32,000 nt of DNA. Source: Burkholderiaceae bacterium (GTDB taxonomy: Bacteria > Pseudomonadota > Gammaproteobacteria > Burkholderiales > Burkholderiaceae_E). The DNA lies in assembly GCA_044355655.1 (NCBI GenBank), contig JBIKXS010000020.1, positions 25,345 to 57,344 on the forward strand, in the 5' to 3' direction. Each line of letters opens with the position of its first letter. The first letter of the stretch is position 1. The position numbers were made by a program, and so were the translations under genes. A model generated the notes under the pieces. The model was not told the origin of the DNA, made no database searches, and saw only the letters and a list, made by a program, of their open reading frames with translations. Shown one piece after another: positions 3,904-32,000 of this stretch.

Positions 3904-3934
3904 AAAATTAAAACAGAGAAGCACTAGAATACTT

Positions 3935-4564: not shown

Positions 4565-4584
4565 GAAGGAGCTCCTTCTCAAAG

Positions 4585-13123: not shown

Positions 13124-13768
13124 TTAATCTCTCCTGATGTCTAATGAGTCCAGGTGATCGATCTGCCCCCATTCGATCATTGAAAATCGTTCACCATCCC
13201 ATGCAATACGATTGAGGCTTGCATTGTGCAAAGGATGCTGGCGCTGTTCGGTCATCGCCACGCCGCTCGCGATCCTGTAGGCGCAATCAAGAAAACCGCC
13301 GTGTGTAACCGCAACAATACGCTCATTGCTTTGATGCGCCGCGACGATCGACTGTAGCGCGCGATGGGTGCGATCAAAGAAATCTCGCAAAGACTCGCCG
13401 CCCTGAGGTAACGCAAAATCCGGTTCACGATTGCGCCAGCGCTGATAATCCGACTGCAAACCCTCAAGTTGCAACTCCTCGTGCGTTTTACCCTCAAAAA
13501 CCCCGTAATGGCGTTCGCGCAATAAACTTTGTTTCAAAATCGGTAAACCAAGCAGTCTTGCAATCGGTTCGGCTGTTGACCAGGCGCGCTTTAAATCGCT
13601 TGCGTAAATCGCATTGATGGGTTGAGCTTGACTTAATATCGATAAATGGCGGGCGGTGAGCATCGCCTGCTGATGGCCTTCTTCCGAAAGCGGCGTATCG
13701 ATTTGCCCTTGAAATCGACGCTGCTGATTCCAGGCTGTCACACCGTGTCTGATCAATACAAGTTCCAT
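13124..13768 (-). CDS. Histidine phosphatase (phosphoglycerate mutase-like) family protein
   Basis: The N-terminal [10 protein letters not shown] catalytic motif and a later THGG motif. Confidence 0.85.
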
Positions 13769-13809
13769 CGTGTGCCTTTGGTGCTTTTTTGGACTTTGGG
13801 TTGTAGGCC

Positions 13810-15168
13810 CTATGCCAAGTGAATACGTGCAAACTTTCGCTTGCCTACCTGTAACACATAGCTGCCCGGACCGATATGCTGATTGCGGTCCGAGATACGC
13901 GCACCGTCAAGTTTTACGCCGCCTTGTTCAATATTCCGAATGGCCTCGCTCGACGATACACATAGGCCAGCAGCCTTAATCGCCTGCGCAAGCCCCAAGG
14001 ATTCAGCGCCGCCAAGACTGATGTGGGTATCAAGCAGATCATCCGGAACTTCGCCATCGCGAAAACGCGATTCAAATTCAGCAAGCGCCTGCTCAGCAGC
14101 TCTTGCATGATGAAAACGTGTCACCATTTCGAGCGCAAGCATCACCTTAGCGTCTCGAGGATTTCGTCCGTTCTCACACTCGGTTCGCAGGGCTTCGATG
14201 GCCTGCAAGGATTGACTGGAAAGCAGCAAAAAGTAGCGCCACATCAAGGTATCAGAAATCGACATTAATTTGCCAAACATCTGCGAGGGCGAATCGGTGA
14301 TGCCGACATAATTATTTTTCGATTTCGACATTTTTTCCACGCCGTCAAGCCCTTCGAGCAAGGGCATGGTCAAAATGCATTGAGGCTCCTGGCCATACTC
14401 GCGCTGCAATTCTCGACCGACAAGCAAATTGAATTTCTGATCGGTACCGCCCAATTCAAGATCTGATTGCAGCGCTACAGAGTCGTAGCCCTGCATGAGC
14501 GGATAGAGCAACTCATGCACCGAAATCGGCGTATTAGATTTATAGCGTTTTGTGAAGTCATCACGCTCAAGCATTCTTGCGAGGGTGTAGCGCGAAGCGA
14601 GTTGAATCATGCCGCGTGCGCCTAATGGATCTGACCATTCTGAGTTGTAACGAATCTCGGTTTTCTGCGGGTCGAGCACGAGTGAAGCTTGTTCAAAGTA
14701 GGTTTTGGCATTGGCTTCGATCTGTTCTCGGGTGAGCGGTGGGCGGGTAGCATTTCGGCCAGAAGGGTCACCAATCATGGCAGTGAAGTCGCCAATCAAA
14801 AAAATCACCGTATGACCTAGATCTTGGAGCTGGCGCATTTTGTTCAGCACGACCGTATGCCCAAGGTGTAGGTCGGGCGCTGTAGGATCAAGACCAAGTT
14901 TGATTCGAAGCGCCTCTCCCCTGGCTTCGCTGCGCGCCAACTTGCGCAAGAAATCAGATTCAACCAATAACTCATCGGCACCACGCTTGGCCACCGCCAT
15001 CGCTGCCTCAACACTGGCCGTGACAGGGTAACTCGGCAGTTGAGCATCTGCAGGCAACGATCTTTCAGCCTCGCAAAGTGCTTGTGGCAGCAATGCTGTT
15101 GCCGCTAGCGCTGCCTGTGGGTTGGGGCTTTTCGGATCGGTGGAATCAGCTCGAGAACTCATGGGCAA
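13810..15168 (-). CDS. tyrS: Tyrosine--tRNA ligase (type 2)
   Basis: HLGH (DLHLGHTVV) and KMSKS motifs plus a C-terminal S4-like domain. The longest ORF gives about 35-40 more N-terminal residues than I expect for Burkholderiales TyrS. An internal TTG start is possible (for example at the Leu of SLPADAQ). Confidence 0.92.
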
Positions 15169-15267
15169 TTGACCTGCGCGTTATGGCTTTATTACAATGG
15201 GAAGTTCGGCCCCTAACTTTCAGAGGGTTGGGCGTCTTATTTTATCCTCGTAAGGAGTGGTACACGC

Positions 15268-17376
15268 ATGGCAAGTGCGGCACAACGACGAAAGAAACGG
15301 ATCGATCGTAAGGCGAAAGCTCAGCGCGCGGGCAGGGTGCTGCCCACCGAAGTGATGGGCCTTTTATCGTTGCCGCCAGAGGCCGAGATCCCAAACACAG
15401 CGTTGATGCCAAGCTTGGCTATGAACACAACAAGCCTCGAGAAGTTCCAGACGCACGGAACGTTCGCTGAACAGCAGCTTTGCCTATCAAGCCAAGAGAA
15501 AGGCCGAGAGAAACACCAAGAGAAAGACACCGGATTTTCACTTTACAAGCGCAACGATGGCAAATATACCGATCCCCGGGCAACCAAGCTTGCTGATGCT
15601 CCGGGAAGCGGGCGTGCTGATGCCCCCGGAAGCAGGCGTGGTGATGCTCTGGCGGTTAGGCCAACTGAGGCACGGACAACCAAGCCTCTTGAGCCGCTTC
15701 CGCAATTCGCCGGTCCACTTGAAGCTTCAAACAAAATACCAAAGTACCGTTCCGAGTCTTCAGGTCAATCGGACTTGACGCCACTGGCTCATCAGTCTTC
15801 CTCGAGTTTGCCCTCATCTACATCACCTCAAACGCTGGTGAAGCGATCGGTCAGTGTGGGCGCCTTTCGGGATCGCATTACCGTTGCATGCTGCCTGATG
15901 GGCCATCACTCGGTGAGCCTGATGTCAGCATTTGCCAGGCCTGCATTCGATCGAACGATAGAGGTGATTGCCCAGCGTGGCTTGCAGTTTGCAGCGGCTG
16001 TGCAACCAATTGTCAGACCGCTTCAGCAGCAATTCGAACGACTGCCCTTGCACTTGTTCGGGTTTGAAATGTGGGCCCGTGCCCGGCGTAAGCAACTTGC
16101 AGCAGGTGGTGCCGCGTCTTTGCTTGCTGTAACTGCGTTTGCCACAGCACCGTTTTCTGAAGAGATCTTGCCACCACCGCAAATGCTCGCCGAAACGCTG
16201 ATGTCGGCTTCATCGGTGTTCGATTTCCAAGAAACAGTTGTGAAGGTCGAGAGCATCCGTCGTGGCGATACGATGGCCGCGCTCCTCAGTCGCATGGATT
16301 TGATTGACCGTGATCTGGCTGAGTTTGTGAAAAAGGATTTGCTTGCACGCAAATCCTTTCAACTACTGCCAGGCCGGCTTGCTATGGCAGAAGTCGACGG
16401 GTACGGAAAAATTCAGCGTTTCGTGCTTCGTACAGGCGGCATTGATGAAAGTTCCGCACAATCGCCCAAGCGCGTCGTGATTGTCCGAGAAGGCGATGGG
16501 TTTCACGTCCGAGAGGAGCTTGTTGTGCTCGATCGCGGTATCGAAACCCGTAGTGCAGAGATTCAAAGCTCGCTCTACGCAGCGACTGATCAGGTTGGAA
16601 TTCCGGAATCGGTCGCCTCAAAAATTGCCGATATATTCGGTGGGGATATCGACTTCCACAGGGATTTGCGCAAGGGTGATCGCTTGCGTGTGATGTATGA
16701 GACCCTGCGTGAGCCTGGCGGTCTGGATACTGCCGCGCCGGGTCGGGTTCTTGGCATTGAATTTTTAAATGCAGGGCGGCGACTTGAAGCTTTCTGGTTC
16801 GACCCCGACGGCGATGGCGCGGGAAGCGGTTCCTACTACGACTCGAAGGGACATAGCCTCAGAAAATCCTTTCTCCGTAATCCTGTTGAATTCAGTCGTG
16901 TGTCGTCGGGATTTAGTGGTGCAAGGCTGCATCCGATTTTTCAGCAGTGGCGAGCGCATCGGGGCGTTGATTTTTCCGCGCCACATGGCACAAGGGTAAG
17001 GGCGGCAGGCGACGGTGTAGTGAGCTTTGTGGGCCGAAACGGTGGCTACGGCAACATGGTGGTTTTAAAACATCGCGATAAAAGCGAAACCGTGTATGCC
17101 CACTTGAGTAATTTCGCTGAAGGCTTACGTGTTGGTCAACAAATTCAGCAGGGTGAATCCATTGGCGAGGTTGGCTCGACTGGATGGGCAACAGGGCCTC
17201 ATTTGCACTATGAATTTAGGATTAATGGTGAACCCGTCGACCCGATGACAACGGCCTTCCAAAGCGGAGGGACGCAGATTCCAAGTGCACACAGGGATCG
17301 TTTCGCATCGTTTACCAGTCAGGTGAAGGCGCAGCTCAACGAGGCGCCTGCTAAGGCGCTTTCTCGCTTCGAATAG
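15268..17376 (+). CDS. M23-family peptidoglycan DD-metalloendopeptidase with a long low-complexity N-terminal region
   Basis: C-terminal HRGVDFSAPHGTRV...GYGNMVVLKH...GSTGWATGPHLHYEF. AAGGAG lies 10 nt upstream of ATG 15268. It is divergent from tyrS and followed by anmK, a conserved synteny. Confidence 0.9.
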   Translation: MASAAQRRKKRIDRKAKAQRAGRVLPTEVMGLLSLPPEAEIPNTALMPSLAMNTTSLEKFQTHGTFAEQQLCLSSQEKGREKHQEKDTGFSLYKRNDGKYTDPRATKLADAPGSGRADAPGSRRGDALAVRPTEARTTKPLEPLPQFAGPLEASNKIPKYRSESSGQSDLTPLAHQSSSSLPSSTSPQTLVKRSVSVGAFRDRITVACCLMGHHSVSLMSAFARPAFDRTIEVIAQRGLQFAAAVQPIVRPLQQQFERLPLHLFGFEMWARARRKQLAAGGAASLLAVTAFATAPFSEEILPPPQMLAETLMSASSVFDFQETVVKVESIRRGDTMAALLSRMDLIDRDLAEFVKKDLLARKSFQLLPGRLAMAEVDGYGKIQRFVLRTGGIDESSAQSPKRVVIVREGDGFHVREELVVLDRGIETRSAEIQSSLYAATDQVGIPESVASKIADIFGGDIDFHRDLRKGDRLRVMYETLREPGGLDTAAPGRVLGIEFLNAGRRLEAFWFDPDGDGAGSGSYYDSKGHSLRKSFLRNPVEFSRVSSGFSGARLHPIFQQWRAHRGVDFSAPHGTRVRAAGDGVVSFVGRNGGYGNMVVLKHRDKSETVYAHLSNFAEGLRVGQQIQQGESIGEVGSTGWATGPHLHYEFRINGEPVDPMTTAFQSGGTQIPSAHRDRFASFTSQVKAQLNEAPAKALSRFE
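15592..15648. repeat. 24-bp tandem repeat (about 2.4 units) inside the M23 peptidase gene
   Basis: GCTGATGCTCCGGGAAGCGGGCGT / GCTGATGCCCCCGGAAGCAGGCGT / GGTGATGCT, encoding ADAPGSGR ADAPGSRR GDA. Confidence 0.85.
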
Positions 17377-20620: not shown

Positions 20621-21049
20621 GTGATGCATTGCAAAGTTCGATGGGGTGGTCCAACGGGCATGAGTTTTCATGCTGAAACCGGAAGTGGTCATCTCGTGAG
20701 CATGGACGGGGCGCCAGAAGGTGGTGGGCGAAATCTGGCACCACGTCCGATGGAGATGGTGCTTTTGGGCACTGGGGCATGCACTGCCTACGATGTTGTC
20801 CTGATTCTGCGTAAAAGTAACCAAGATGTTCGCGATTGCGAAGTGAGCCTTGAAGCAGCGCGCGCCGTAACCGACCCCAAAGTATTCACCGCAATCAAGA
20901 TGCATTTTGTGGTTGTGGGCAAGGGCTTAAAGGCAAATTTGGTGGAGCGCGCTATCAAGCTCTCGCATGACAAGTATTGTTCTGCAACCGCAATGCTCGG
21001 CAAGTCAGCCAGCATTGCAATCGACTGGGAAATTAAAGAGGTCGATTAA
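20621..21049 (+). CDS. OsmC-family (OsmC/Ohr/YhfA-like) protein
   Basis: About 140 aa with RPMEMVLLGTGACTAYDVV and HDKYCSATAML (the paired Cys context of the OsmC family). The start is GTG 20621 or ATG 20624. Confidence 0.85.
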   Translation: MMHCKVRWGGPTGMSFHAETGSGHLVSMDGAPEGGGRNLAPRPMEMVLLGTGACTAYDVVLILRKSNQDVRDCEVSLEAARAVTDPKVFTAIKMHFVVVGKGLKANLVERAIKLSHDKYCSATAMLGKSASIAIDWEIKEVD

Positions 21050-21160
21050 GACATCATAAGGAGGTTGATTAAGACATCAACCTGGTAGCGCCGTCATCCA
21101 TCGAAAGCGCTGTGATGAAAGCCTCGTGAGTTAAAACTAAGGGATGTTGCCTCGACCTTA

Positions 21161-22224: not shown

Positions 22225-23451
22225 ATGAAGAAATCGCTTCTCGCGATTGCAATCGCAGCTGCTTTACCGGCCGTCGCATCGGCCCAAGTGACTATTTCTG
22301 GCTACGCTAAAGGTAGCTTTGATAGTTTTTCGATTGGCGACAAAAACGCCGCTAGGCTTGGCAAAACCTCAGAGAATCGTGTAACCGACCATTCGTCACG
22401 CATGATTTTCAGCGCGAACGAGCAAATCGATAATGATCTTTCTGGTGTTTTCCAATTGGACTTGCGCTTTAATGTGGACCAAGTTGGACGCGCTGGTAAT
22501 GAAGGTGCGGCGGCAGAACCAGGAAAACATGTTGCAACACCTAGCGCGGTTGGAAACGTATTGAGCACTGGTAACAACCATGTCGGTATCGTCAGTAAGT
22601 CGATGGGTGCCCTGAGATTTGGGCGTTCAGACATTTACTACGGTAATACTGGCTCTGTATTGCCAAGTTCTACACACATCAACGCCTCTGCGCCTACTGT
22701 GATTCATAACCCAGGCGCAGCAATGGCCAACTGGTCGCGCACGCCAAACCTGATTTGGTACACCTCACCGACGGTCCAAGGATGGTCTGCGACTGCTGGC
22801 TATTCAACCAATCCACTGCGCGTGTCAGGTACTAACGAAACCGAAAACGACCTTAGCACGACTGCAGCGACTCGCAAGGGTAGCGGTACATTCTTCCAGG
22901 TCAATGGTACGGTTGGTCCGGTAGCATTAGCTTACGCTACCGTCAATCTCAAGTCTGACTACTTTGGCGGCACATGTACCCTTGCTAGCGGTAGCTGTAT
23001 TTATGAATGGACGAACAACCCCAACCCGAATCAAAAGGGTAATGTTGTTACAGCTATTTACCGTAGTGGTCCAATCGCTTTGGGAGCAGCTTACTCGGCT
23101 AACGAGACGTCAAGCAACACGAATATTAAGACTGAGCGTACGGCCTTCAACTTGAGTGCGGCCTACACGATGGGTAAGAATACCTTTGCACTTGAGCGTC
23201 AAACAGGCGGCGACCTTTCAAGGAACGGTGCTAAACAGGCCGAGACTGGATTAACCGGTACGGTACTCGCTTGGGACTACGCATTCTCCAAGCGCACGAA
23301 CGTGGGTGTTACACACTTTATCCTTGAGAACGATAAGAATTCTAACGTTGGCCCCTTCTATTCAACCAGCAACACCTTTGGTGGACAGTTTGGTGCACTG
23401 GCTGGTGAGAAGTACACGGTTACAGCGTTCGTAATGCGTCACACATGGTAA
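22225..23451 (+). CDS. Gram-negative general porin (Burkholderiales OmpC-like), intact copy with native promoter, SD and start
   Basis: Signal peptide MKKSLLAIAIAAALPAVASA|QVTISGY, alternating beta-strand pattern, aromatic C-terminus (FVMRHTW). SD AGGAGAG lies 7 nt upstream. Confidence 0.9.
   Translation: MKKSLLAIAIAAALPAVASAQVTISGYAKGSFDSFSIGDKNAARLGKTSENRVTDHSSRMIFSANEQIDNDLSGVFQLDLRFNVDQVGRAGNEGAAAEPGKHVATPSAVGNVLSTGNNHVGIVSKSMGALRFGRSDIYYGNTGSVLPSSTHINASAPTVIHNPGAAMANWSRTPNLIWYTSPTVQGWSATAGYSTNPLRVSGTNETENDLSTTAATRKGSGTFFQVNGTVGPVALAYATVNLKSDYFGGTCTLASGSCIYEWTNNPNPNQKGNVVTAIYRSGPIALGAAYSANETSSNTNIKTERTAFNLSAAYTMGKNTFALERQTGGDLSRNGAKQAETGLTGTVLAWDYAFSKRTNVGVTHFILENDKNSNVGPFYSTSNTFGGQFGALAGEKYTVTAFVMRHTW
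22232..22869 (+). repeat. Left copy of a long direct repeat (porin nt 8 onward); the extent is limited by the window end
   Basis: Identical to 31363..32000 (offset 9131) except 22815 A versus 31946 C, a synonymous Pro codon change. Confidence 0.97.
22243..22256. repeat. Perfect 14-bp palindrome GCGATTGCAATCGC, 11 bp inside the repeat boundary (second copy at 31374..31387)
   Basis: Read directly. It lies in the signal-peptide coding region (LAIAIA). Confidence 0.9.
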
Positions 23452-23574: not shown

Positions 23575-24867
23575 GTGTCAAGCGAAGCAAGTAACGATGC
23601 TGTATTCAGGGCCAAGCGCTCAAGGTCATGCCCACTGCGGTTGACGTTTTGTCGGATCGAGGGTCAAGCGGCCTCGCTGACCTTATACCGTATCGAAGCG
23701 AGCAGCTTTTGGCAGTGCCGTTTCTTTCACGCTGGAAAGATGCTCACGAAAAGTACGCGGACTGCGCAACTTGATGAGGCCAAGCGATTCGCGCTTGCTT
23801 TTCACCACAGCAAAGTACACCAAACAACGAGCGAACTCATGGCCGATGCAATGCCAGGCCCAGTGCGCTTTGGTGAGTTAGCGAAACAGCTCATGCGTCA
23901 CGAGGCAACCCGCAAAGATCGGGGCGAGTTTGCCGAGCTCTCTTATCGTGCTGATCAGATTCGCCTTGCAACAGAAATTATTCCCTTCTTTGGGCCAATG
24001 CCAGTGAAGGCAATTACCGCGCAGCATGTGGAGTCTTTTTACTTCAAACTCACTTCGCGCGCCCTATCGAGCACGACCTTATCGCTCTACTTGATGACGC
24101 TTAGAAAAGTGCTCAAGTACGCACGCACCTTGAGCATCATTGAGACCTTGCCAACGATGCCTTCGGTCAAGATCAAGAAGCGTTCGAGGGGAAGTTTTAC
24201 ACCGACTGAGTACGTGACGCTCATACGAAGCGCGCGACAAGTGGTTGGAAGCACGGTGCTTGACGCAACCGAGGTGATTCCAAAACGATTCTGGATCATC
24301 CCGAAATATAGACGCTACCCACAAGATTTAGCCTACGTCATCGCCTTTATGGTGAACAGTTTCATCAGACCAAGCGATCTGAAGACGCTTCGTCATCGAC
24401 ACGTTGAAGTGGTGCGAGGCCCGCACAATTACCTTCGACTGACTTTGCCAGAGACCAAAGCGCATGATGCACCGATTGTCACGCTCAGACCCGCTGTGCG
24501 CTTGTATGAACGTTTGCTCAAGCAACAACAGTGTCAAGGTTTTGGAAGACCCGATGACTTCTTGTTTTTGCCTCTCGAACAGAATCGAAACTATGGCTTG
24601 GCTGTGTTGGGCTGGATGTTCCGACACTTACTTGACAAGTTAGGGTTACGAAATGGCCCACACGGGCACCCTAGAACGCTCTACTCACTGCGACACACAG
24701 CGATCACGCTTCGTTTGCTCTATGGCACAGGTATCGACATGTTGACACTCGCAAGAAATGCGAGAACTAGCGTCGAGATGATCGAGCGACACTACGCTAG
24801 TGCGCTTACTGCTGAGCGAAACATCGGTATGTTGCAGAGCAAACGCGGCCCAAGGCAACGAAACTAA
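23575..24867 (+). CDS. Tyrosine-type site-specific integrase (full length, with N-terminal DNA-binding part)
   Basis: C-terminal catalytic region with FIRPSDL (Arg I), LYSLRHTAITLRLL (His/Arg II) and MIERHYAS (nucleophile Tyr). The start is uncertain (GTG 23575 is the longest ORF). Confidence 0.88.
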   Translation: MSSEASNDAVFRAKRSRSCPLRLTFCRIEGQAASLTLYRIEASSFWQCRFFHAGKMLTKSTRTAQLDEAKRFALAFHHSKVHQTTSELMADAMPGPVRFGELAKQLMRHEATRKDRGEFAELSYRADQIRLATEIIPFFGPMPVKAITAQHVESFYFKLTSRALSSTTLSLYLMTLRKVLKYARTLSIIETLPTMPSVKIKKRSRGSFTPTEYVTLIRSARQVVGSTVLDATEVIPKRFWIIPKYRRYPQDLAYVIAFMVNSFIRPSDLKTLRHRHVEVVRGPHNYLRLTLPETKAHDAPIVTLRPAVRLYERLLKQQQCQGFGRPDDFLFLPLEQNRNYGLAVLGWMFRHLLDKLGLRNGPHGHPRTLYSLRHTAITLRLLYGTGIDMLTLARNARTSVEMIERHYASALTAERNIGMLQSKRGPRQRN

Positions 24868-24871
24868 ACGC

Positions 24872-24897
24872 AAGCGTCCCAAAACGAGACGCTCAGC
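24872..24897. repeat. IR-L: left copy of a perfect 26-bp inverted repeat (AAGCGTCCCAAAACGAGACGCTCAGC)
   Basis: It is the exact reverse complement of 28954..28979. It contains its own 6-bp stem, AGCGTC-N9-GACGCT. Confidence 0.95.
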
Positions 24898-24903
24898 ACG
24901 TTA

Positions 24904-25365
24904 TCAATGTGGTTTTGCCCTAAACCGTGCCTTCAATTGATCAGAAGCAGCTTGAATCAACAGATCTAACTCCCCAGCATCAAGCGCAATGAGTATGCGC
25001 TCAAGCATCGGAATCAACGCCGCGACGGAGTCAAGCTCAAGCGCTGTCTTACCTTTTTGAAACTCTAGGGCCTTAGACCCATACTTGATTTCAAGGCCGA
25101 TTTTTCCATGCTCAGAAGTAAACCACCAGCAGCGAAGCCTTATGCGGTGTTCCGTCTCGCGTTGTTCCCCAGAGATGCGATCGGTCACGAGGCGACGACG
25201 TATGGTATGAAGTGGGTGTCCGTCTAGCTGCGCTTGAGCGAGCTCAATTTGCTGTTTGAGTCTTTTCCTAAGTTTCGCGCGACGAAACTCGATGGGTGTT
25301 GGGGGCGTAGCTCGCTTTGGCGCGAACCACTTGAGGCCTTGCAAGATGGTCATTGATTGATTCAT
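24904..25365 (-). CDS. Hypothetical protein (153 aa), island cargo
   Basis: A long ORF with plausible composition and no catalytic motif recognised. Its pattern (basic N-terminus, RLRCWWF...GKIGLEIKYGSKALEFQKGK...AGELD) recalls conserved island-associated hypothetical proteins, but I cannot name a family with certainty. Confidence 0.55.
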   Translation of the reverse strand: MNQSMTILQGLKWFAPKRATPPTPIEFRRAKLRKRLKQQIELAQAQLDGHPLHTIRRRLVTDRISGEQRETEHRIRLRCWWFTSEHGKIGLEIKYGSKALEFQKGKTALELDSVAALIPMLERILIALDAGELDLLIQAASDQLKARFRAKPH

Positions 25366-25479
25366 TATAAAGAACGATAAGCGATTATCTCTTTACAATG
25401 ATTTGGTTTTTGCTGGAACGGCTCGCAAAACAATTGGTTATTTTGTACTTTTATTTGGTATGGCATAAATAAATGCATC

Positions 25480-26037
25480 ATGACAAACGTTCATCAATCT
25501 ACTGGCATTGTGCAAACACACGACAGTCTGCTACAGCAAGCGTTGAATCAGTGGCTCGCGATGCACCATGGGGCGTTTACGCATGCAGCGACATTTACAT
25601 TTAACGAGCGACGAGTATGGAGGTTCATCGGAGCCAGCACTCAGTTTATAACTCCGCATGATGAGGGCATGATCGCGCTCTTGCGAAAGACGATGCGTTT
25701 GTTTCAGCGTCGGCTTGAGCGTTCGCTTTATGGGAACGCAGCTAAGCGCTATGGACAACGTTTGCTTTTTATTCCAATGCTGGAGGGACTTCGTTGTGGC
25801 GAGTTTCCACACTATCACGCAGCGTTGGGGGTTGACGAGGCTCGAACTGCATCGCTCGCAACGAAGATCAAGCGTGCGTGGACTTCGTTACCATTTGCAG
25901 GACATCACATTGAGCTAGTACCTTACAGGGATCAAGGGTGGCTCAGCTACAGCACGAAAGCTGCGTATCGAGTCAATCAGCACTCGATTGATTGGGAAAG
26001 CGTGAGCGTTCCACTTCGATCCCCAATCCCTTGCTGA
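25480..26037 (+). CDS. Small HUH-motif Rep-like protein (inovirus Gp2 / YfjJ-YagK-like rolling-circle initiator or relaxase-like nuclease)
   Basis: Three motifs in the canonical order: AATFTF (aa 36-41, motif I like FLTLTY), FPHYHAALGV (H111-Y-H113, the HUH motif) and LSYSTKAAY (aa 155-163, YxxK-type Tyr motif). Confidence 0.6.
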   Translation: MTNVHQSTGIVQTHDSLLQQALNQWLAMHHGAFTHAATFTFNERRVWRFIGASTQFITPHDEGMIALLRKTMRLFQRRLERSLYGNAAKRYGQRLLFIPMLEGLRCGEFPHYHAALGVDEARTASLATKIKRAWTSLPFAGHHIELVPYRDQGWLSYSTKAAYRVNQHSIDWESVSVPLRSPIPC

Positions 26038-26415
26038 GCAAAGCTCCTTGGGGTTGCGCATGAAAAGCGTGATCGCTTTATTTGTCTCACCACGTCCATA
26101 GCAATCTATGCGTTCAGATGAACGAACATCAAGCGCAACCTTAGCGACAGATCGTTGATTGTCGATCTGCTTTCAGCGAGATAGGTTATTCGATATGCAT
26201 CGTATACCGTTATCGGATGCAACAGCATCAGTTTTTTAAAAAAACTCGCAGGCATTGAGCCAGATATAAACCAATACAAAGAACACAAAGCATTGGTCTT
26301 CGCTTAAGTTATTGATCTATATAGTATTGTATTTTATACCGATCACGGTTGCCCTTTCAGACCAAAGGGTTCATCATAAATACATACAAACTCGTTGGTA
26401 TTGAAAGGAGAACAG

Positions 26416-27021
26416 ATGGCACAGGCTCGAGTTTTAACAGACAGAGATGTGGGCCGCGTGTTGCGTTATATCGCAAATCACAAACACGCATCTCGCAACA
26501 GAGCGATGTTTTTGCTCACGACGCAAACGGGTATGCGTATTGGCGAGGTCGCGGCGTTACGTCTATCGCAAGTGCTGACAAAAGACGGCAAGATCAGAGA
26601 TGAGATTCGGCTCGCACCAGATCAGACCAAAGGGGGTCGAGGTCGCTTGGTGATCTTGTCAGAAAAGGCGCAGCACGAGATTCATCACTACTTGTCGGTG
26701 AGATTTCGGCTCAAGGACTTGTTTCCCTTGACGATGACAGATACGAATCGAGCGCTCTTTTGTACGCAGAAAAATCCAGATCGAGGCTTCAGTGCGTCGA
26801 CGCTATCGCAGCACTTTCACTACATGTATCGGCGCGCGGGCATCGATGGGGCAAGTAGCCATAGTGGGCGTCGTAGCTTCATTACCCATCTAGCGGAGAA
26901 GGGCGTATCGGTGCGGGTGTTGATGGAGCTCGCTGGACATCGCAGCTTAGCTGTGACGCAGCGCTATATCGAGACAAATCCCTCAATGCTCAGACGAGCA
27001 GTCGAGTTGCTCAGAATCTAG
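26416..27021 (+). CDS. Small (201 aa) tyrosine recombinase, essentially catalytic domain only (FimB/FimE-like size)
   Basis: Motifs GMRIGEV (Arg I), TKGGRGR (Lys), HSGRRSF (His/Arg II), LAGHRSLAVTQRY (His and Tyr). AAGGAG lies 6 nt upstream of ATG 26416. Confidence 0.85.
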   Translation: MAQARVLTDRDVGRVLRYIANHKHASRNRAMFLLTTQTGMRIGEVAALRLSQVLTKDGKIRDEIRLAPDQTKGGRGRLVILSEKAQHEIHHYLSVRFRLKDLFPLTMTDTNRALFCTQKNPDRGFSASTLSQHFHYMYRRAGIDGASSHSGRRSFITHLAEKGVSVRVLMELAGHRSLAVTQRYIETNPSMLRRAVELLRI

Positions 27022-27037
27022 GGGCTAGATTCTGAGC
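27009..27037. terminator. Perfect 13-bp stem / 3-nt GGG loop hairpin between convergent genes (terminator or protein-binding site)
   Basis: GCTCAGAATCTAG-GGG-CTAGATTCTGAGC. It overlaps the recombinase stop codon and has no T-run. Confidence 0.4.
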
Positions 27038-27100
27038 ATGGGCTTCGTGGTGTGTGGGTTGCGGCGAAGCTTGGCTTTGCCAATTGAGGCTTAGACTAGG

Positions 27101-27880
27101 TCATGCAGCAACTTGCGCTGAGTATTCATTCTCTGCTTGAGGGCCTGCAAAATTAACGACTTCTTGCTTAAGCATCGCTGATTCTTCTTTGGCAATCGTT
27201 ATCTGCTTTGCTGCTGACTTCACCAAACCGTCATAAACGGTGTCACTTAAGTGTGGTACCACGCAGATGATGTCAAATCCACCTTGATCGTTAGGTTCTG
27301 CGATGAGCACAGAGCGACTCTCTGGCTTAATGCCACTAAGCGTGACTTGAGCAAGTGGGACGCTACGACGAGCTTCGATCTCTTGGGTCAAGGCGCAGAC
27401 TTCATGAGCAATGCGCTGACGCTTTGCTTGTGTCTCTTCGCTTAGCGTGATCAGCTTACATGCCCCATCAATACCACCAACGCTGTCAAGCCACTGAGGC
27501 AGATCGGCTGCTGCAATGGCGTGGGATTTAGCAGCTTCGATGACATAGCGATAGCGCATGACACGCTTACGGTCGCTCTTAAAGACATAGCGAATGAGGA
27601 TACCGAGCGTGGTTGAGGTCTTCTGGGTACGGATCCCATCGTTGAGGAGTTTTTCAATTAAAGCAGCGCGGAATGCCTTTCGTAAGCTGTCTTCTGTCAT
27701 CACAAAATGATCCTCGTAAGCAGCGTAGGTTTTGCTCAAGAGACTGTAGAGGGCTTGGGTCGCTGAGCGATAAACACTCGACTCCCAATCGGCGCGTTCG
27801 TCGCTCAGCACATTGAGTTTGCTCAACACGACGGTCGTTTGAGCTTCGAAGTTGGTTTCGGGGGTGATTGATGTGGTCAT
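27101..27880 (-). CDS. Hypothetical protein (259 aa), island cargo
   Basis: A long ORF with no recognisable motif. It is divergent from 28003..28884. Confidence 0.55.
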   Translation of the reverse strand: MTTSITPETNFEAQTTVVLSKLNVLSDERADWESSVYRSATQALYSLLSKTYAAYEDHFVMTEDSLRKAFRAALIEKLLNDGIRTQKTSTTLGILIRYVFKSDRKRVMRYRYVIEAAKSHAIAAADLPQWLDSVGGIDGACKLITLSEETQAKRQRIAHEVCALTQEIEARRSVPLAQVTLSGIKPESRSVLIAEPNDQGGFDIICVVPHLSDTVYDGLVKSAAKQITIAKEESAMLKQEVVNFAGPQAENEYSAQVAA

Positions 27881-27911
27881 TTGAATCTCCTTGGGTAGTT
27901 CAGCGTTCGTC

Positions 27912-27924
27912 AGACACCGTGTCT
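27912..27924. promoter_or_regulatory. 13-bp palindrome AGACAC-C-GTGTCT in the divergent promoter region
   Basis: Read directly. It is located between the starts at 27880 (-) and 28003 (+). Confidence 0.3.
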
Positions 27925-28002
27925 TTCGCTTTGCTGATGGGATCCATTTAACCAGTCGTTACCATATACTGTCCTCACTACGTTTTCAGTTGATAACACT
28001 AT

Positions 28003-28884
28003 ATGAATCGCGTTTTCCCCAACCTCTCGAAGCATTTCTATGAAGAGCAAAAGGCAGAGATCGCAGCTGCCAGGCGCAGCCCCTATTACATGTGGTGGAT
28101 GTGTCTCGCGTTAAGTCGAGAGTACTGGCGGTTATGTCAAGTCGAGGGAAAGACGGGTGATCCTCAGTTCGCAAGGGTCTATGAGCACTTTGGGGATGTC
28201 TTTCACGATGAATTTGATGATTGGTGGCTCGAGCACGGCAAGGCTGCCTTCGCTTACAAGATCAGACCCCCAGTGGTGCGCTACTTGACTCCGACAGACA
28301 GTCGCGAATTCTCAAATCATGGCCACTTAAAGCATGCAAAGCTTGTCGTCGTACCAGACCACTATTCAAAGTCAGAGCTTGTGAGACAGTTCAAAAGGCT
28401 TTTGGTCGACTATGCACCAAGCGCACTACCTGCTCGATTCGCAAGTCCGTTTGAAGTCGCAAGTCTACGCGGCATGAAGCGCAGCATGTTGAGAGATGTC
28501 TTAAGGGTCAGAGTAGCGAGCGATGCTTTACAAATCGTTAAGACCAAGCAATTGATCGCGCACCCAGAAAAGTACGGCGCTGCGTGGATTGGGCGCATCG
28601 CGAATATTTCACCTCGAAAAAGCGCTAATAAGTTGCGCACAAAGGACACTGATCGCAATGAGCGCTTAGCGCTAAGGGTCAAGGTGGCACGCTATCAGCT
28701 GAAGGCCTCTCGACTCATAGCTAACGCGGAGATTGGCGTTTTCCCCAACATAGCACCAACAACAGAAAATCCTAAGCGCTGGACAAAGGCGCAGCTTGCA
28801 CGGTTCGCAAAACTTGAGGCCCAAGAACCCTTCATCAGTCCAGTTGTTCAATACACGCAATATCTAAAATTGATCACGGGCTAG
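28003..28884 (+). CDS. Hypothetical protein (293 aa), island cargo
   Basis: A long ORF with a Trp/Tyr-rich N-terminal part (SPYYMWWMCLALSREYWRLC) and a basic C-terminal half. No motif was recognised and the SD is weak. Confidence 0.5.
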   Translation: MNRVFPNLSKHFYEEQKAEIAAARRSPYYMWWMCLALSREYWRLCQVEGKTGDPQFARVYEHFGDVFHDEFDDWWLEHGKAAFAYKIRPPVVRYLTPTDSREFSNHGHLKHAKLVVVPDHYSKSELVRQFKRLLVDYAPSALPARFASPFEVASLRGMKRSMLRDVLRVRVASDALQIVKTKQLIAHPEKYGAAWIGRIANISPRKSANKLRTKDTDRNERLALRVKVARYQLKASRLIANAEIGVFPNIAPTTENPKRWTKAQLARFAKLEAQEPFISPVVQYTQYLKLITG

Positions 28885-28953
28885 ACACTGCGATGGGTCG
28901 AGGGTACACGCTCGCATACTTAATCTTGGCGCTTTGAGCGATCGGTGTTGAAC

Positions 28954-28979
28954 GCTGAGCGTCTCGTTTTGGGACGCTT
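28954..28979. repeat. IR-R: right copy of the perfect 26-bp inverted repeat
   Basis: GCTGAGCGTCTCGTTTTGGGACGCTT is the reverse complement of 24872..24897. Confidence 0.95.
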
Positions 28980-29340
28980 AGGGGTGGTGATTGCACGGTC
29001 TCCGATTGTGCGGTGCTTTCAAAAAAAGGAAGCTCGACAAAAAATAAAAAAATTAAGGTTCTGATTGATCGAGCAAAAAAAGAGACTAACCTACGTCTAT
29101 AAAAAAAATGCAACGAGCTGGTACGAATTCAAATCGAGGTTGCTTGCTTCATGAAGAGAGGGCTTTTCAAGCCCCTCTGTGAACTCGCTTGCGCTATCGC
29201 GCTGCGCTCATTCACAGCTTTTCTTCACAATAAGTTAAGCACATGAGTCATCGGGATGGGGTTAACGAAGGAATTACTATAAGTGTGTGACTTTTTGAAG
29301 GTCAAAGCGCTTCGGTTTGATCCGTAGCGAGGGGTACCAG

Positions 29341-30804
29341 ATGCTAAGACTCGAAGTGGATCCAGCGGTCCTTAAGGCGTTAAAGACGGCATTTCCAAAA
29401 CCCTCGGGTGCGGCGCTGAAGGCATTGCGGAAATACGTGAGTGCGTTGAACGATCTACTCACCGAGGCAATTCGTCTGGGGAACGACCCTTATGGCGCTC
29501 GGTTTCACTTATTTAGTATCAGTCTGCATCAACTCGCGAACCGAGGGGGGCAGATTGGACCTAAGCGCATTCGTACGCATGCGTGGTTGAAGGAAAACGG
29601 GTTAGCGCTCGTTCAAGCAATCGAATTGGGCAGCAATCTGAGTGGTCAGAAGTCACGCGTTCGTCTAACAAGGCTTGTCACGCTGGTCGACGAGCTGAGC
29701 TTGGCTTCGGTGCAGATAAAGCACAGTGCGAATGTGAAGGGCTTTCTTGATCATCCGAGCGAGAGCGAAGTGGCATGGATTCGTCAGATTTATCCAGCGC
29801 TAGACCAACTCGATGAGGTCGCGGTCAATGCGCAGTATCACATCACTGACATCGATCTTGAGTCGTTGGGACGATTCATCATCTGGATCGCAGAAAAGGC
29901 ACGTCATATTCCTAAGTCAAGAAGGGATATGATTTTTCGGCAAGCGGTCTTGATCTACCGCGTTGCCAAGTTTAGTGATGGAATCTTTCTGCAAAAGATC
30001 AAACGTAGTCACTTTGGTCGAACGTACTATGAAGGCATCAGCGTTCAAAACGTGCACCGAACGCTACGTCAAGCGATGCTCGGTGACAGTTGGGAGTACG
30101 ACATCGTTTCATCGGTTGTTGCTTGGAAGCTAGGCTTTGGCGAGCGGTTTCGCCAAGTGATGCTCAAAAGCCAGTCGGTAGCTGAGATCTTTCCCACGAT
30201 GCTTATCTATCTGCAAGATAAAGATGATCTGATTAAGACGATACGTGCTGATACATATTTAAGGGATAGCGAGGTGGATGCGATCGGTCAGCGCAAGCAA
30301 GTGAAGTCAGCACTGACTGCGCTTTGCTTTGGCGCGAGGGTTGGTGCCAGTGGGTGGCATGACGACGCGGGCATGTGGAAAGTCCCCGCGATTGGAAGCA
30401 TCTTCAAAGATGTCAGTGAACGCAAGCGTTTTGTGATGAGTCGTAGCACCAAAGCATTCATCAATGAGCAAAGGAAGCTCGACCAATTCATCTTCGATTT
30501 GCACTTGGCTTCAAATCGATCACTCAAATGCGACCCTCGGCTTCAGACCGAAAGCGGACGAGTGAGTCGCGCTAAAGTGCTCGCATACCTTTATCAACAC
30601 GCTGAGACAGCGGCCATGGATATCGTTCGTCGCGAGTTAGCACAAGTTAACAACACGGTGCTTGCGAATATCCACGATGCGATCATCGTTCGAGAAAAAC
30701 TCTCGCTCGATGTTCGAAACGTGATCGAGGATTCGATGAGGCGAGAGACGGGTAATGTTTTCTGGAGAGTTAGCCAAAAGCAAATTAAGCGCTTTGAGAG
30801 CTAG
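29341..30804 (+). CDS. Divergent family-A (Pol I / T7-like) nucleic-acid polymerase domain protein with no exonuclease domains
   Basis: Numbering follows the 495-aa track ORF. FGRTYYEGISVQNV matches TGRLSSxxPNLQNIP; RTLRQAM matches RxIRxAF; motif A is D262. Motif B is R326-x3-K330-x7-F338-G339, the same spacing as RxxxKxxxxxxxYG. ETAAMDIV matches QGTAADII, and motif C is NIHD454AIIV. ATG 29341 has GAGGGG 6 nt upstream and is preferred over TTG 29317. Confidence 0.6.
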   Translation: MLRLEVDPAVLKALKTAFPKPSGAALKALRKYVSALNDLLTEAIRLGNDPYGARFHLFSISLHQLANRGGQIGPKRIRTHAWLKENGLALVQAIELGSNLSGQKSRVRLTRLVTLVDELSLASVQIKHSANVKGFLDHPSESEVAWIRQIYPALDQLDEVAVNAQYHITDIDLESLGRFIIWIAEKARHIPKSRRDMIFRQAVLIYRVAKFSDGIFLQKIKRSHFGRTYYEGISVQNVHRTLRQAMLGDSWEYDIVSSVVAWKLGFGERFRQVMLKSQSVAEIFPTMLIYLQDKDDLIKTIRADTYLRDSEVDAIGQRKQVKSALTALCFGARVGASGWHDDAGMWKVPAIGSIFKDVSERKRFVMSRSTKAFINEQRKLDQFIFDLHLASNRSLKCDPRLQTESGRVSRAKVLAYLYQHAETAAMDIVRRELAQVNNTVLANIHDAIIVREKLSLDVRNVIEDSMRRETGNVFWRVSQKQIKRFES

Positions 30805-31362: not shown

Positions 31363-32000
31363 AATCGCTTCTCGCGATTGCAATCGCAGCTGCTTTACCG
31401 GCCGTCGCATCGGCCCAAGTGACTATTTCTGGCTACGCTAAAGGTAGCTTTGATAGTTTTTCGATTGGCGACAAAAACGCCGCTAGGCTTGGCAAAACCT
31501 CAGAGAATCGTGTAACCGACCATTCGTCACGCATGATTTTCAGCGCGAACGAGCAAATCGATAATGATCTTTCTGGTGTTTTCCAATTGGACTTGCGCTT
31601 TAATGTGGACCAAGTTGGACGCGCTGGTAATGAAGGTGCGGCGGCAGAACCAGGAAAACATGTTGCAACACCTAGCGCGGTTGGAAACGTATTGAGCACT
31701 GGTAACAACCATGTCGGTATCGTCAGTAAGTCGATGGGTGCCCTGAGATTTGGGCGTTCAGACATTTACTACGGTAATACTGGCTCTGTATTGCCAAGTT
31801 CTACACACATCAACGCCTCTGCGCCTACTGTGATTCATAACCCAGGCGCAGCAATGGCCAACTGGTCGCGCACGCCAAACCTGATTTGGTACACCTCACC
31901 GACGGTCCAAGGATGGTCTGCGACTGCTGGCTATTCAACCAATCCCCTGCGCGTGTCAGGTACTAACGAAACCGAAAACGACCTTAGCACGACTGCAGCG
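31363..32000 (+). repeat. Right copy of the long direct repeat (porin nt 8 onward), running off the window
   Basis: See 22232..22869. Confidence 0.97.
31363..32000 (+). pseudogene. Displaced second porin copy lacking the native promoter, SD and first 7 nt (ATGAAGA); 3' end outside the window
   Basis: Homology to the intact porin starts at codon 3, and the upstream DNA is island sequence. It may still be expressed from an alternative in-frame TTG at 31320, so the pseudogene status is provisional. Confidence 0.5.

Follow-up and report, generated by a model that had tools for sequence, protein, structure and literature searches.

In the fimS switch of E. coli, FimB and FimE, tyrosine recombinases of ~200 amino acids formed from the catalytic domain only, flip DNA lying between inverted sites; we infer a comparable reaction for the locus described here, a 4.1-kb module bounded by inverted repeats within a 32-kb stretch of DNA (the 'window'). 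The sequence-only reading had drawn the same analogy, and it holds for the size and domain layout of the 201-aa recombinase encoded by the module but fails for membership of the FimB/FimE family, which we reject (29 bits versus a cut-off of 221), and for the placement of the sites. Whereas fim relies on 9-bp repeats positioned between promoter and gene, flanking a promoter fragment of ~300 bp, the sites here are palindromes of 21–26 bp that follow gene ends, enclosing five complete genes (the recombinase included), with no promoter being connected or disconnected.

A second precedent is provided by the plasmid dif (pdif) modules of Acinetobacter, in which sites delimit modules that are shuffled, inverted or replaced (PMC6449649, PMC13141974). 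As there, the putative tyrosine-recombinase sites of our locus and its relatives are short, partly palindromic, found in both orientations and bound self-contained gene modules; pdif, however, uses the host XerC/XerD enzymes and resides on plasmids, whereas here the site sequence is unrelated, a dedicated small recombinase is encoded within the array, and the setting is that of chromosomal integrative islands in freshwater Betaproteobacteria. Three related islands (L118, L120 and L123), each with one recombinase and 6–7 sites of both polarities separating segments that could invert, recall the R64 shufflon and its recombinase Rci; shufflon sites, however, are embedded in the coding sequence of a single gene, whose C-terminal ends they exchange, whilst those seen here are intergenic, with whole genes or operons moving. 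The recombinase is also half the size of Rci, and the window has only two sites.

Other likenesses are more partial. Hin and Gin act on kilobase-scale segments between inverted sites of 26 bp (hix) or 34 bp (gix), with hin inside its segment, but are serine recombinases needing an enhancer and Fis, and their inversions switch a promoter or alternative gene ends. The yeast 2-micron circle (FLP/FRT) is a self-replicating element of a few kilobases, divided into roughly equal arcs by two inverted tyrosine-recombinase sites and encoding its own recombinase; the excised island would similarly be ~9.1 kb, split 4.1/5.0 kb, with a Rep-like protein and a PolA-like polymerase. Against this, our locus has no long flanking repeats and no sign of inversion coupled to replication or copy number, and its relatives with many sites are at odds with an amplification design built on two. 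Shared with integrons (IntI, attI, attC) are palindromic sites at gene 3′ ends and, in several of the islands, a site next to the recombinase gene; here, however, the modules have their own promoters and occur in both orientations, and the sites are short near-perfect palindromes rather than attC structures. The 201-aa enzyme is not an integron integrase (43 bits versus a cut-off of 265).

The module and its repeats

The module belongs to an island of 9.1 kb whose insertion point is the start of a porin gene, with the following features:

23575..24867, plus strand: large island integrase, 430 aa from a GTG start (342 aa, start 23839, in public gene calls); outside the module, adjoining IR-L
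24872..28979: invertible module, 4108 bp; opposite orientation in L001 (both flanks) and L179 (integrase flank)
24872..24897, plus strand: left site (IR-L), AAGCGTCCCAAAACGAGACGCTCAGC
24904..25365, minus strand: DUF6641 protein, 153 aa (149 aa from the ATG at 25353); DUF6641 match, E 1e-9
25480..26037, plus strand: HUH Rep-like protein, 185 aa; motifs T38xT40, H111xH113, Y157xxK160
26038..26415: hairpin-rich spacer of 378 nt between the Rep-like and recombinase genes
26416..27021, plus strand: tyrosine recombinase, 201 aa, catalytic domain only; Phage_integrase PF00589, E 3e-29
27009..27037, plus strand: perfect 13-bp hairpin GCTCAGAATCTAG-GGG-CTAGATTCTGAGC, overlapping the recombinase stop codon
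27101..27880, minus strand: 259-aa protein with no assigned function, divergent partner of the 293-aa gene
28003..28884, plus strand: 293-aa protein with no assigned function; right end of the module, outward-facing
28954..28979, minus strand: right site (IR-R), exact reverse complement of IR-L
29276..29291, plus strand: conserved block ACTATAAGTGTGTGAC, part of a longer conserved stretch
29341..30804, plus strand: 487-aa protein with a family A DNA polymerase fold (PolA-like); outside the module, downstream of IR-R

The 26-mer occurs exactly twice in the 32-kb window (24872–24897, plus; 28954–28979, minus), with no further copy at up to three mismatches and a chance expectation of 0.00 (100 shuffles), bearing out the earlier claim that a perfect pair is unlikely to arise by chance; it is both the longest and the sole perfect inverted repeat of the window, and the match between the copies stops at precisely 26 nt, the sequence beyond differing at either end. 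In IR-L, the palindromic arms AGCGTC (24873–24878) and GACGCT (24888–24893) enclose an asymmetric 9-nt centre, CCAAAACGA, each repeat having the half-site pattern A-AGCGTC ... GACGCT-T. With its symmetric arms and asymmetric centre, each looks like the core site of a tyrosine recombinase. The AGCGTC-N9-GACGCT fold that had been proposed for each copy is also real, reaching 9–11 pairs when G-T/G-U pairs are included, on the sense strand of both outward-facing end genes (DNA folding energy −8.8 to −9.0 kcal/mol; z −3.6 to −4.6). The integrase gene stops 5 nt short of IR-L and the DUF6641 gene, reading from the other side, 6 nt short of it; the 293-aa gene stops 70 nt before IR-R, and a further 361 nt separate IR-R from the polymerase-like gene.

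All five open reading frames previously assigned to the module were found at the positions claimed. The DUF6641 gene, its outward-facing left end, is a near-constant neighbour of the recombinase family. The HUH call on the 185-aa protein is upheld by motifs (TxT, HxH, YxxK) that are invariant in 10 homologues of 22–65% identity, and by a low-confidence model (pLDDT 61.7) for which HUH nucleases are the best fold matches; the spacer that follows may be a candidate origin or regulatory region. At the sequence level the catalytic residue set of the recombinase is intact, with R41, K72, H149, R152, H175 and Y184 invariant in 26 homologues. The hairpin at its stop codon is kept, and is longer, in a diverged relative (L023), and is not a site of the AGCGTC type. 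The 259-aa/293-aa gene pair recurs beside the recombinase in many islands, in either orientation.

As an observation on layout, the recombinase gene lies 1.5–1.9 kb from either site in the window whilst the large integrase adjoins IR-L, an arrangement that counts against the small recombinase as the acting enzyme. Beyond IR-R, three island lineages share the conserved stretch holding ACTATAAGTGTGTGAC, immediately ahead of the polymerase-like gene; it is probably that gene's own promoter or operator, such that its expression need not depend on the orientation of the module.

Natural inversion and the site motif in relatives

Comparison of homologous islands, a check proposed in the sequence-only reading, did reveal modules inverted between the repeats. 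In contigs L001 (ENA ERZ27275342, 5405 bp) and L179 (ERZ27275609), which come from two separate samples and are ~96% identical to the window, the module is flipped, with breakpoints inside the repeats. L001 reads in the order right flank reverse-complemented, repeat, module, repeat, left flank reverse-complemented; it contains both inversion junctions and all five module genes intact. L179, 99.2% identical to L001 (18 mismatches), again has the right end of the module joined to the integrase. The proposal of an invertible segment is thus supported by this relative and by the intact catalytic set, but against it all 17 contigs of the window's own lineage (98.7–100% identical) share the window orientation: the inversion is observed between lineages ~96% identical rather than inside one clone and, because of this uniformity, there is no sign of rapid phase variation; any switching that does take place would be infrequent or strongly biased. 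A contig of a third lineage (L177) starts exactly at the first base of IR-R, possibly reflecting an assembly-graph branch at the repeat and hence mixed orientation.

Among three lineages that are 65–78% identical overall, the site is one of the few short blocks conserved in the non-coding stretch that separates the module from the polymerase-like gene. In the two other lineages the centres differ between the two sites, and all contigs have one orientation; perfect identity of both sites is specific to the lineages that show inversion.

Islands related to that of the window occur in many freshwater bacteria and are split into modules by the site motif, which recurs alongside recombinases of 46–71% identity, with up to seven sites per island, nearly all of them intergenic. 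Around recombinase homologues, 1.19 Mb of sequence contains 37 sites with perfect arms where 0.07 would be expected; general palindromic sites of this form number 62, against 0–3 in shuffles. Sites are absent from 697 kb around distant viral homologues, from 71 kb of polymerase/DUF6641 loci that lack the recombinase, and from the window outside the island. The recombinase gene is within 3.5 kb of 21 of 40 sites and in several islands its stop codon is followed by a site after fewer than 10 nt; many recombinase homologues have no recognisable site nearby.

Some differences between relatives map to these sites. The L113 cassette (3869–5283) matches L120 (2153–754) in inverted form at 90.6% identity, its right end coinciding with a site and the homology on the left running ~0.5 kb past the other; between L120 and L123, the cassette bounded by the recombinase-adjacent site and the next has been replaced. 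Some other cassette differences have no sites at their edges. Two further arrangements do not fit strict directional inversion: the centres of the two sites in the L035–L038 lineage are direct, not inverted, in polarity, and site centres are flipped in place between L120 and L123.

Probable recombination sites and the alternatives

We consider it probable (roughly 0.7) that the 26-bp repeats are the core recombination sites of the 201-aa recombinase encoded within the module, and we infer the action of this enzyme rather than another, along with the position of cleavage and any regulatory consequence. Recombinase monomers would bind the two symmetric half-sites, with the asymmetric centre giving each site its direction; as the sites in this lineage are inverted and identical across the whole centre, strand exchange would flip the 4.1-kb module. 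Such flipping should be tolerated: with two divergent promoter regions predicted inside and the end genes reading outward, no gene would be cut from its promoter. All that would change is which end gene converges on the integrase and which faces the polymerase-like operon (the 293-aa gene in the window, DUF6641 after inversion). Across the wider family, islands contain several of these sites, which mark off cassettes that are inverted or otherwise different from one relative to the next; the system is therefore best viewed as a device for module inversion and shuffling, with a dedicated recombinase, rather than a Fim-type on/off switch.

The best-surviving alternative, though an unlikely one, is that the repeats are bidirectional terminators, insulator hairpins or operators for a module protein, with the L001/L179 inversion a single rare RecA-dependent exchange between the two identical 26-bp copies, fixed in one lineage. 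Genes end at 51 of the 54 sites flanked by genes on either side, the outward transcripts form a stable RNA hairpin, and a T-rich tail follows the left copy, which scores as terminator-like; moreover, orientation is uniform within each lineage and 26 bp is about the minimal length for homologous recombination. The right copy, however, has no T-run, three sites lie between divergent gene starts, and the arm sequence stays the same in 35 distinct sites spread over different genera, although in a pure hairpin compensatory changes would let it drift, which leaves the earlier suggestion of a reused terminator or hairpin module without support. Clustering around the recombinase gene, absence from control DNA and breakpoints on sites in at least three independent comparisons also argue against it.

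Less probable again is use of the sites by a different tyrosine recombinase: the large island integrase, or host XerC/XerD as in the Acinetobacter dif modules. There is precedent for modules bounded by Xer sites (PMC6449649, PMC13141974). For the integrase, IR-L lies 5 nt from its stop in all three close lineages, and L120 and L123 have a site just upstream of an integrase gene; the 5′ end of the porin gene seems, however, to be the island integrase's own attachment sequence. For Xer, the site is not known to resemble the proteobacterial dif consensus. Weighing against both, a site follows the stop of the small recombinase by no more than 10 nt in several islands, the arms (AGCGTC, ACCGTC, AGTGTC, AAAGTC) vary together with the lineage of that enzyme, and polymerase and DUF6641 loci without it have no sites.

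We give little credence to the hairpins being targets of the HUH Rep-like nuclease, whether as signals for rolling-circle origin or termination or as REP/RAYT-like elements. With a stem of 6 bp and a loop of 9 nt they do resemble nonanucleotide origin hairpins, the 185-aa protein retains all three HUH motifs, and the best matches to its weak model are three hairpin-binding proteins: AAV Rep, ISHp608 TnpA and a REP-associated transposase. Yet sites are most abundant where the HUH gene is missing: no island with 4–9 sites (L088, L098, L113, L115, L116, L118, L120, L123) has a detectable Rep homologue, the protein that pairs with DUF6641 in these islands has no HUH motifs, and where a Rep homologue is present there is mostly one site or none. 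Nicking at two sites, one on each strand, would also fail to account for a conservative inversion.

The faintest prospect is that of terminal repeats of a nested transposon carrying the five genes. The enclosure of DNA-processing enzyme genes by a perfect repeat pair speaks for it; against it, there is no target-site duplication (outer flanks ...AAACGC and AGGGGT...), no DDE or other transposase was found, ~45 related contigs hold neither an empty site nor a second insertion context, and the module has been found flipped at an unchanged position, an outcome that transposition does not yield. A weaker, cassette form of the mobile-element idea does survive, in that the same sites bound exchangeable cassettes in relatives.

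The module and its two orientations

The 26-mer AAGCGTCCCAAAACGAGACGCTCAGC at 24872–24897 recurs as its exact reverse complement at 28954–28979, with the identity between the two copies stopping exactly at 26 nt; no further match was found in the window with up to three mismatches allowed (chance expectation is likewise none), and the pair is the sole perfect long inverted repeat within the 32 kb. The sequence-only reading, which had these perfect repeats bracketing five genes, was right on this point: the match is 26/26, the centre is asymmetric, and the five open reading frames are found as placed.

Features of the module and its surroundings (window coordinates)
23575–24867, plus strand: large integrase, outside the module
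24872–24897, plus strand: left repeat
Between the repeats, minus strand: DUF6641 protein, 153/149 aa
Between the repeats, plus strand: HUH Rep-like protein, 185 aa
26416–27021, between the repeats, plus strand: tyrosine recombinase, 201 aa
Between the repeats, minus strand: 259-aa protein
Between the repeats, plus strand: 293-aa protein
28954–28979, minus strand: right repeat
29341–30804, downstream of the right repeat: polymerase-like protein, 487 aa

Folding confirmed the AGCGTC-N9-GACGCT hairpin proposed for each copy, whose stem is lengthened to 9–11 pairs by G-T/G-U pairing on the sense strand of the two outward-facing end genes. Both sites are intergenic, lying downstream of gene 3′ ends, and share four extra identical bases, CAGC, at their inner side. 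The left copy has a terminator-like score, with a T-rich tail supplied by its left outer flank; the right copy is without a T-run and is followed by a second hairpin. A separate, perfect 13-bp hairpin covers the stop codon of the small recombinase (27009–27037; 18 bp in the diverged contig L023, 5534–5570), and is kept between lineages that are ~78% identical; it differs from the AGCGTC-type site, for which reason a degenerate AGCGTC site behind the window's recombinase gene was rejected. Sequence searches of Pfam, PHROGs, NCBIfam and the PDB returned nothing useful for the 259-aa, 293-aa and 116-aa proteins, and PADLOC gave no match for any island protein.

Inversion of the module in nature is real. 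An exact-protein look-up of the recombinase retrieved L001 (a MEGAHIT k141 contig, ENA ERZ27275342), whose alignment to the window falls into three segments.

Correspondence of contig L001 with the window
L001 1–325: window 29278–28954, reversed
L001 300–4409: window 24872–28979
L001 4384–5405: window 24897–23876, reversed

The module is therefore flipped relative to both of its flanks, with breakpoints within the repeats and all five genes intact. L179 (ERZ27275609) comes from a different sample, matches L001 at 99.2% identity (18 mismatches) and repeats its junction between the right end of the module and the integrase; misassembly at a 26-bp repeat is very unlikely, given k=141 and two samples. 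When every fetched contig was typed with 50-nt junction probes, window-type junctions were seen in 17 distinct contigs of the window's own lineage (98.7–100% identical) and inverted junctions only in L001. Comparison of homologous islands hence upholds the earlier proposal of an invertible segment.

Junction sequences of the two orientations
WT-left: GAAACTAAACGC-AAGCGTCCCAAAACGAGACGCTCAGC-ACGTTATCAATG
WT-right: TCGGTGTTGAAC-GCTGAGCGTCTCGTTTTGGGACGCTT-AGGGGTGGTGAT
INV-left: GAAACTAAACGC-AAGCGTCCCAAAACGAGACGCTCAGC-GTTCAACACCGA
INV-right: CATTGATAACGT-GCTGAGCGTCTCGTTTTGGGACGCTT-AGGGGTGGTGAT

Samples bearing the island are JGI 3300037508, 3300034355 and 3300035666, and ENA/SRA ERZ27275342, ERZ27275609, ERZ23498857, ERZ27272075, SRR10955660 and SRR11638128. 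Exact-protein look-ups with the polymerase-like protein, the 342-aa integrase and DUF6641 returned the window orientation only, and a further one (P0262) proved to be the window's own DUF6641 variant; the same gene order is found in the diverged lineages L023–L034 and L035–L038. Within the metagenome scan, whose collection is a subset without the contigs obtained by other routes, the 21-nt core was present in two contigs only, both of a diverged lineage. A contig of a third close lineage, L177, starts exactly at the first base of the right repeat—a coincidence with an estimated chance of ~0.04 among the contig ends examined—and is a hint, not proof, of an assembly-graph branch arising from mixed orientations.

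The recombinase family and the distribution of its sites

The 201-aa protein belongs to the tyrosine recombinase superfamily (PF00589, E 2.6e-29), and its catalytic set is complete, with R41, K72, H149, R152, H175 and Y184 invariant in 26 recombinase sequences. It aligns to the catalytic domains of the XerA and XerD structures and, in a 292-aa Xer-like protein, the match covers only residues 107–275; it corresponds to a Xer-type catalytic domain alone. The comparison with FimB and FimE made in the sequence-only reading survives in part: the size (~200 aa) and the lack of an N-terminal core-binding domain are shared, family membership is not (PRK09870 and PRK09871, with cut-offs of 221 and 222, score 29.5 and 28.6 bits), nor is the small promoter switch. 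The best NCBIfam matches are Xer-type models, also far under their cut-offs.

More than 4,600 relatives were found in the database at E <= 1e-10, the best 120 of these being 197–300 aa long and nearly all ~200. Scanning species-representative genomes gave 80 loci with homologues of 46–71% identity, mostly from Limnohabitans, Polynucleobacter, Methylophilaceae, Oxalobacteraceae and other Betaproteobacteria, the few other taxon labels being metagenome-assembled genomes. DUF6641 lies nearby almost without exception, and homologues of the 259/293-aa pair, the Rep-like protein, the polymerase and the integrase often occur as well, but their order and orientation vary. Contig L059 (Limnohabitans parvus II-B4, 20.6 kb) holds three integrase–DUF6641–recombinase sets within 20 kb; in the middle set, to which the polymerase-like gene belongs, the orientation of the recombinase relative to DUF6641 and the integrase is different.

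The 1.19 Mb of homologue loci contain 37 perfect AGCGTC-N9-GACGCT sites against an expectation of 0.07, with the consensus tA-AGCGTC-NNGTAACNN-GACGCT-Ta. Palindromic sites of the general form NNNGTC-N9-GACNNN number 62, against 0–3 in shuffled sequence, and include the further arm types ACCGTC, AAAGTC and AGTGTC. The 22 kb of the window beyond the island are free of sites, as are 71 kb of loci that carry polymerase and DUF6641 without the recombinase (as at the loci of P0179, a polymerase homologue) and 697 kb around distant viral homologues; viral contigs hold only distant relatives of the recombinase (<=36% identity) and no sites, and the island is therefore not a recognisable phage. In one recombinase-free lineage (L169–L173), the polymerase-like gene is followed by DUF6641; here ~20 contigs end within ~110 nt after the DUF6641 gene (about 10157–10294) and longer contigs diverge soon after, which points to a hotspot of variation.

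Five loci (L118, L120, L123, L098 and L113) each carry 5–9 general sites in both polarities, with 6–7 of the AGCGTC type in each of L118, L120 and L123, where they divide the islands into units of mostly 1–5 genes; multi-site islands also occur in complete genomes, for example Methylophilaceae ME-M6 (OZ271846.1) and Polynucleobacter isolates. A cassette of L113 (3869–5283) corresponds to L120 2153–754 inverted, at 90.6% identity over a match that reaches from one site to another: on the right, the breakpoint genuinely coincides with a site, and on the left the inverted homology goes ~0.5 kb beyond the other site. Comparison of L120 with L123 shows replacement of the cassette bounded by the recombinase-adjacent site and the next site. 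No second kind of site was found at the insertion breakpoints L120 2470/6840, so some differences between relatives are not site-bounded. Accessory cassette genes in multi-site islands (L118 9273–9710 and 12570–13256) include those for a SocA/Panacea antitoxin-like protein and an AAA ATPase, the latter after the 259/293-aa pair.

That the repeats act as hairpins or terminators, with inversion a rare RecA-mediated event, would suit the position of the sites, since 60/62 are intergenic (though ~81% of the DNA is coding) and, where genes lie on both sides (54 sites), 51 adjoin a 3′ end, and the orientation of the module is uniform within lineages; it does not account for arms whose sequence is invariant across genera, for the clustering of sites around the recombinase gene (21/40 within 3.5 kb) or for breakpoints that repeatedly coincide with sites. 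That the large integrase or host Xer acts at the sites instead is disfavoured by the tight linkage of a site to the small recombinase gene in several islands (within 10 nt after its stop codon in L098, L116, L118, L120 and L123), and by arms whose type varies in step with the lineage of the recombinase. The suggestion that the hairpins are recognised by the HUH nuclease fares poorly as well, the sites being most abundant in islands that have no HUH gene: every island with 4–9 sites is without a Rep homologue, and the 149–151-aa DUF6641 partner in these islands was rejected as a hidden Rep for want of HUH motifs. Transposon terminal repeats, also proposed earlier, are disfavoured too: domain searches found no transposase, no direct repeat or target duplication flanks the module, and the insertion context is the same in all contigs.

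Site anatomy and a proposed recombination system

Tyrosine-recombinase core sites such as loxP, FRT and dif are built from two symmetric arms around an asymmetric centre of 5–9 bp. Across lineages, the arms AGCGTC and GACGCT are constant and the 9-nt centre is variable. The non-coding stretch that separates the module from the polymerase-like gene contains only a few short conserved blocks, of which the site is one.

Centres of the paired sites in three lineages
Window lineage: left CCAAAACGA, right TCGTTTTGG; perfect inverted copies
L023 type: left CCAAAACGA, right TCGTTTCGA; inverted, two differences
L035 type: left TCAAAACGA, right GCGAAACGA; direct polarity

All 12 distinct contigs of the L023-type lineage, in which the centres differ at two positions, have one gene order—only a correlation, and one that fits the usual need for identical overlap regions. 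L023 and L025 (recombinase 95% identical) carry an extra minus-strand gene of 253–265 aa within the site-bounded module, placed between the 292-aa gene and the right site (e.g. L023 7463–8260). The sites of L035–L038 (e.g. L035 234–254 and 4404–4424; recombinase 89% identical) have the same polarity, such that recombination would be predicted to excise the module, not invert it. At three pairs of corresponding sites (L120 2132, 7560 and 8407; L123 9504, 10576 and 10873), the 9-nt centres are reverse complements of each other (for example GCGTAACAC and GTGTTACGC) and the regions are collinear; these near-palindromic sites seem to flip in place. Taken with the direct polarity of L035–L038 and the extra CAGC, this may mean that nearly symmetric sites recombine in either alignment.

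We propose that the small recombinase would bind the symmetric arms as a dimer, pair two sites and exchange strands across the centre, a reaction that is possible as inversion in the window since its sites are identical throughout. With two internal divergent promoter regions and outward-facing end genes, every gene would keep its promoter after a flip; a flip should swap the roles of the two end genes, one reading toward the polymerase-like operon and the other converging on the integrase. As the T-rich tail of the left flank is terminator-like and the right flank is not, the gene at the right end may read through the site. A short conserved stretch immediately before the polymerase-like gene, however, hints at a promoter of its own, and any regulatory effect of inversion is putative. 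Given the multi-site relatives, we think that module inversion and exchange, as with dif modules, describes the system better than a phase switch.

More broadly, we put at slightly below even odds (about 0.45) the existence of a widespread recombination system of small recombinases and palindromic sites that splits the islands of freshwater Betaproteobacteria into mobile modules. Tyrosine recombinases consisting of the catalytic domain alone would each recognise a palindrome of 21–27 bp (A-AGCGTC-N9-GACGCT-T and variants), copies of which would split integrative islands of Limnohabitans, Polynucleobacter, Methylophilaceae and Oxalobacteraceae into self-contained modules that are inverted, excised or swapped between islands. 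In effect, this would give dif modules or integrons a self-encoded counterpart. A more daring version, drawn by analogy with FLP of the 2-micron plasmid, would have inversion at the sites within an excised, replicating circle serve copy-number amplification.

The system works like known tyrosine-recombinase inversion systems, sharing with site-specific inversion in general two inverted sites with identical crossover regions and both orientations known. Such inversion is well known and, to our knowledge, almost always takes the form of a small switch of a promoter or a shuffler of gene ends; here, the sites enclose entire modules of several genes, that of the recombinase among them. FimB/FimE act on a small switch that carries a promoter, borders the regulated operon and is enclosed by short inverted repeats; the present segment spans 4.1 kb and five complete genes, and each of its sites follows the 3′ end of a gene. 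Several other systems were considered and rejected, although relatives with multiple sites do resemble dif modules or shufflons. Modules of the dif (pdif) type are flanked by XerC/XerD sites (11-6-11) and moved by host Xer; here, the site is A-AGCGTC-N9-GACGCT-T, which does not seem to resemble the dif consensus, and it is accompanied by a dedicated, island-encoded recombinase. A shufflon has several sites of both polarities in the 3′ region of one gene and a Rci-type recombinase, against two sites in the window, both intergenic like nearly all those of its relatives. Integrons combine attI and attC cassettes with an integrase of the IntI type; the present recombinase reaches 43 bits with TIGR02249, for which the cut-off is 265, and the modules are bidirectional with their own promoter regions. 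REP/RAYT elements pair an HUH Y1 protein with flanking inverted REPs that are also dispersed through the genome, at odds with the site-free remainder of the window and with sites that are commonest where the HUH gene is absent. No description of the site, DUF6641 or the recombinase family was found in the literature, of which coverage was incomplete, and an earlier description is possible.

The recombinase family is large and ecologically prominent, and sites of this kind partition many islands of bacteria that rank among the most abundant in fresh water. Flexible genomic islands of Polynucleobacter, Limnohabitans and Methylophilaceae show mosaic, cassette-like variability that is unexplained at site level (e.g. 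PMC10872708). Were the proposal true, it would offer a concrete mechanism for that variability, as well as a compact ~200-aa recombinase with a short, defined site as a possible tool.

The host island

The module sits in an island of ~9.1 kb, itself notable for its own porin gene, a minimal PolA-like polymerase and an HUH Rep-like protein. The complete left porin gene (22225–23451, 408 aa) keeps the chromosomal promoter and start codon; a direct repeat beginning at its codon 3 (22232) resumes after the island at 31363 and runs to the end of the window with one mismatch, forming a second porin copy (31363–32000) that starts at codon 3. In L010, a contig longer than the window and 99.99% identical in the overlap, this second copy (13351–15687) extends over 2.2 kb (99.8% identical), crossing the porin gene and entering a degraded, partly deleted integrase, and is therefore a remnant of an earlier tandem island. 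In L023 and L025, only ~70 bp at the porin 5′ end is repeated (L023 858–929 and 10705–10775), and the porin genes themselves are different. It would therefore seem that the island inserts where a porin gene begins and brings a porin gene of its own, which takes over the chromosomal promoter. The attachment sequence of the large integrase would then be the porin 5′ end, not the 26-bp repeats, and the island looks like a porin-swapping integrative element.

For the 185-aa protein, the earlier HUH Rep-like call stands on good motif evidence—motifs I (uTuT), II (HUH) and III (YxxK) are invariant in ten aligned homologues—and on weak fold evidence, the Pfam match reaching E 0.093 only and the top fold matches of a low-confidence model (pLDDT 61.7) being HUH nucleases at E 0.02–0.15. 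The 487-aa protein has no Pfam, PHROG or NCBIfam match; Foldseek pairs its AlphaFold model (mean pLDDT 87.7) with family A DNA polymerases (Aquifex, Taq, apicoplast; E 1e-7, probability 1.0), the exonuclease domain being absent. Two motifs, KxxxxxxxFG and HDA, do not vary among its 564 uncharacterised relatives. With a polymerase-like and an HUH Rep-like protein encoded on it, the island looks like an integrative, probably self-replicating element.

Four independent Logan contigs (L002, L004, L021 and L022) end exactly at window 24789, within the integrase 3′ end, probably because 24691–24818 is repeated at 96% in the downstream integrase remnant, breaking assemblies. Upstream of the island, a tandem 23-bp duplication (21034–21079, 91% identical) spans the stop codon of an OsmC-like gene (20621–21049) and the next 30 nt.
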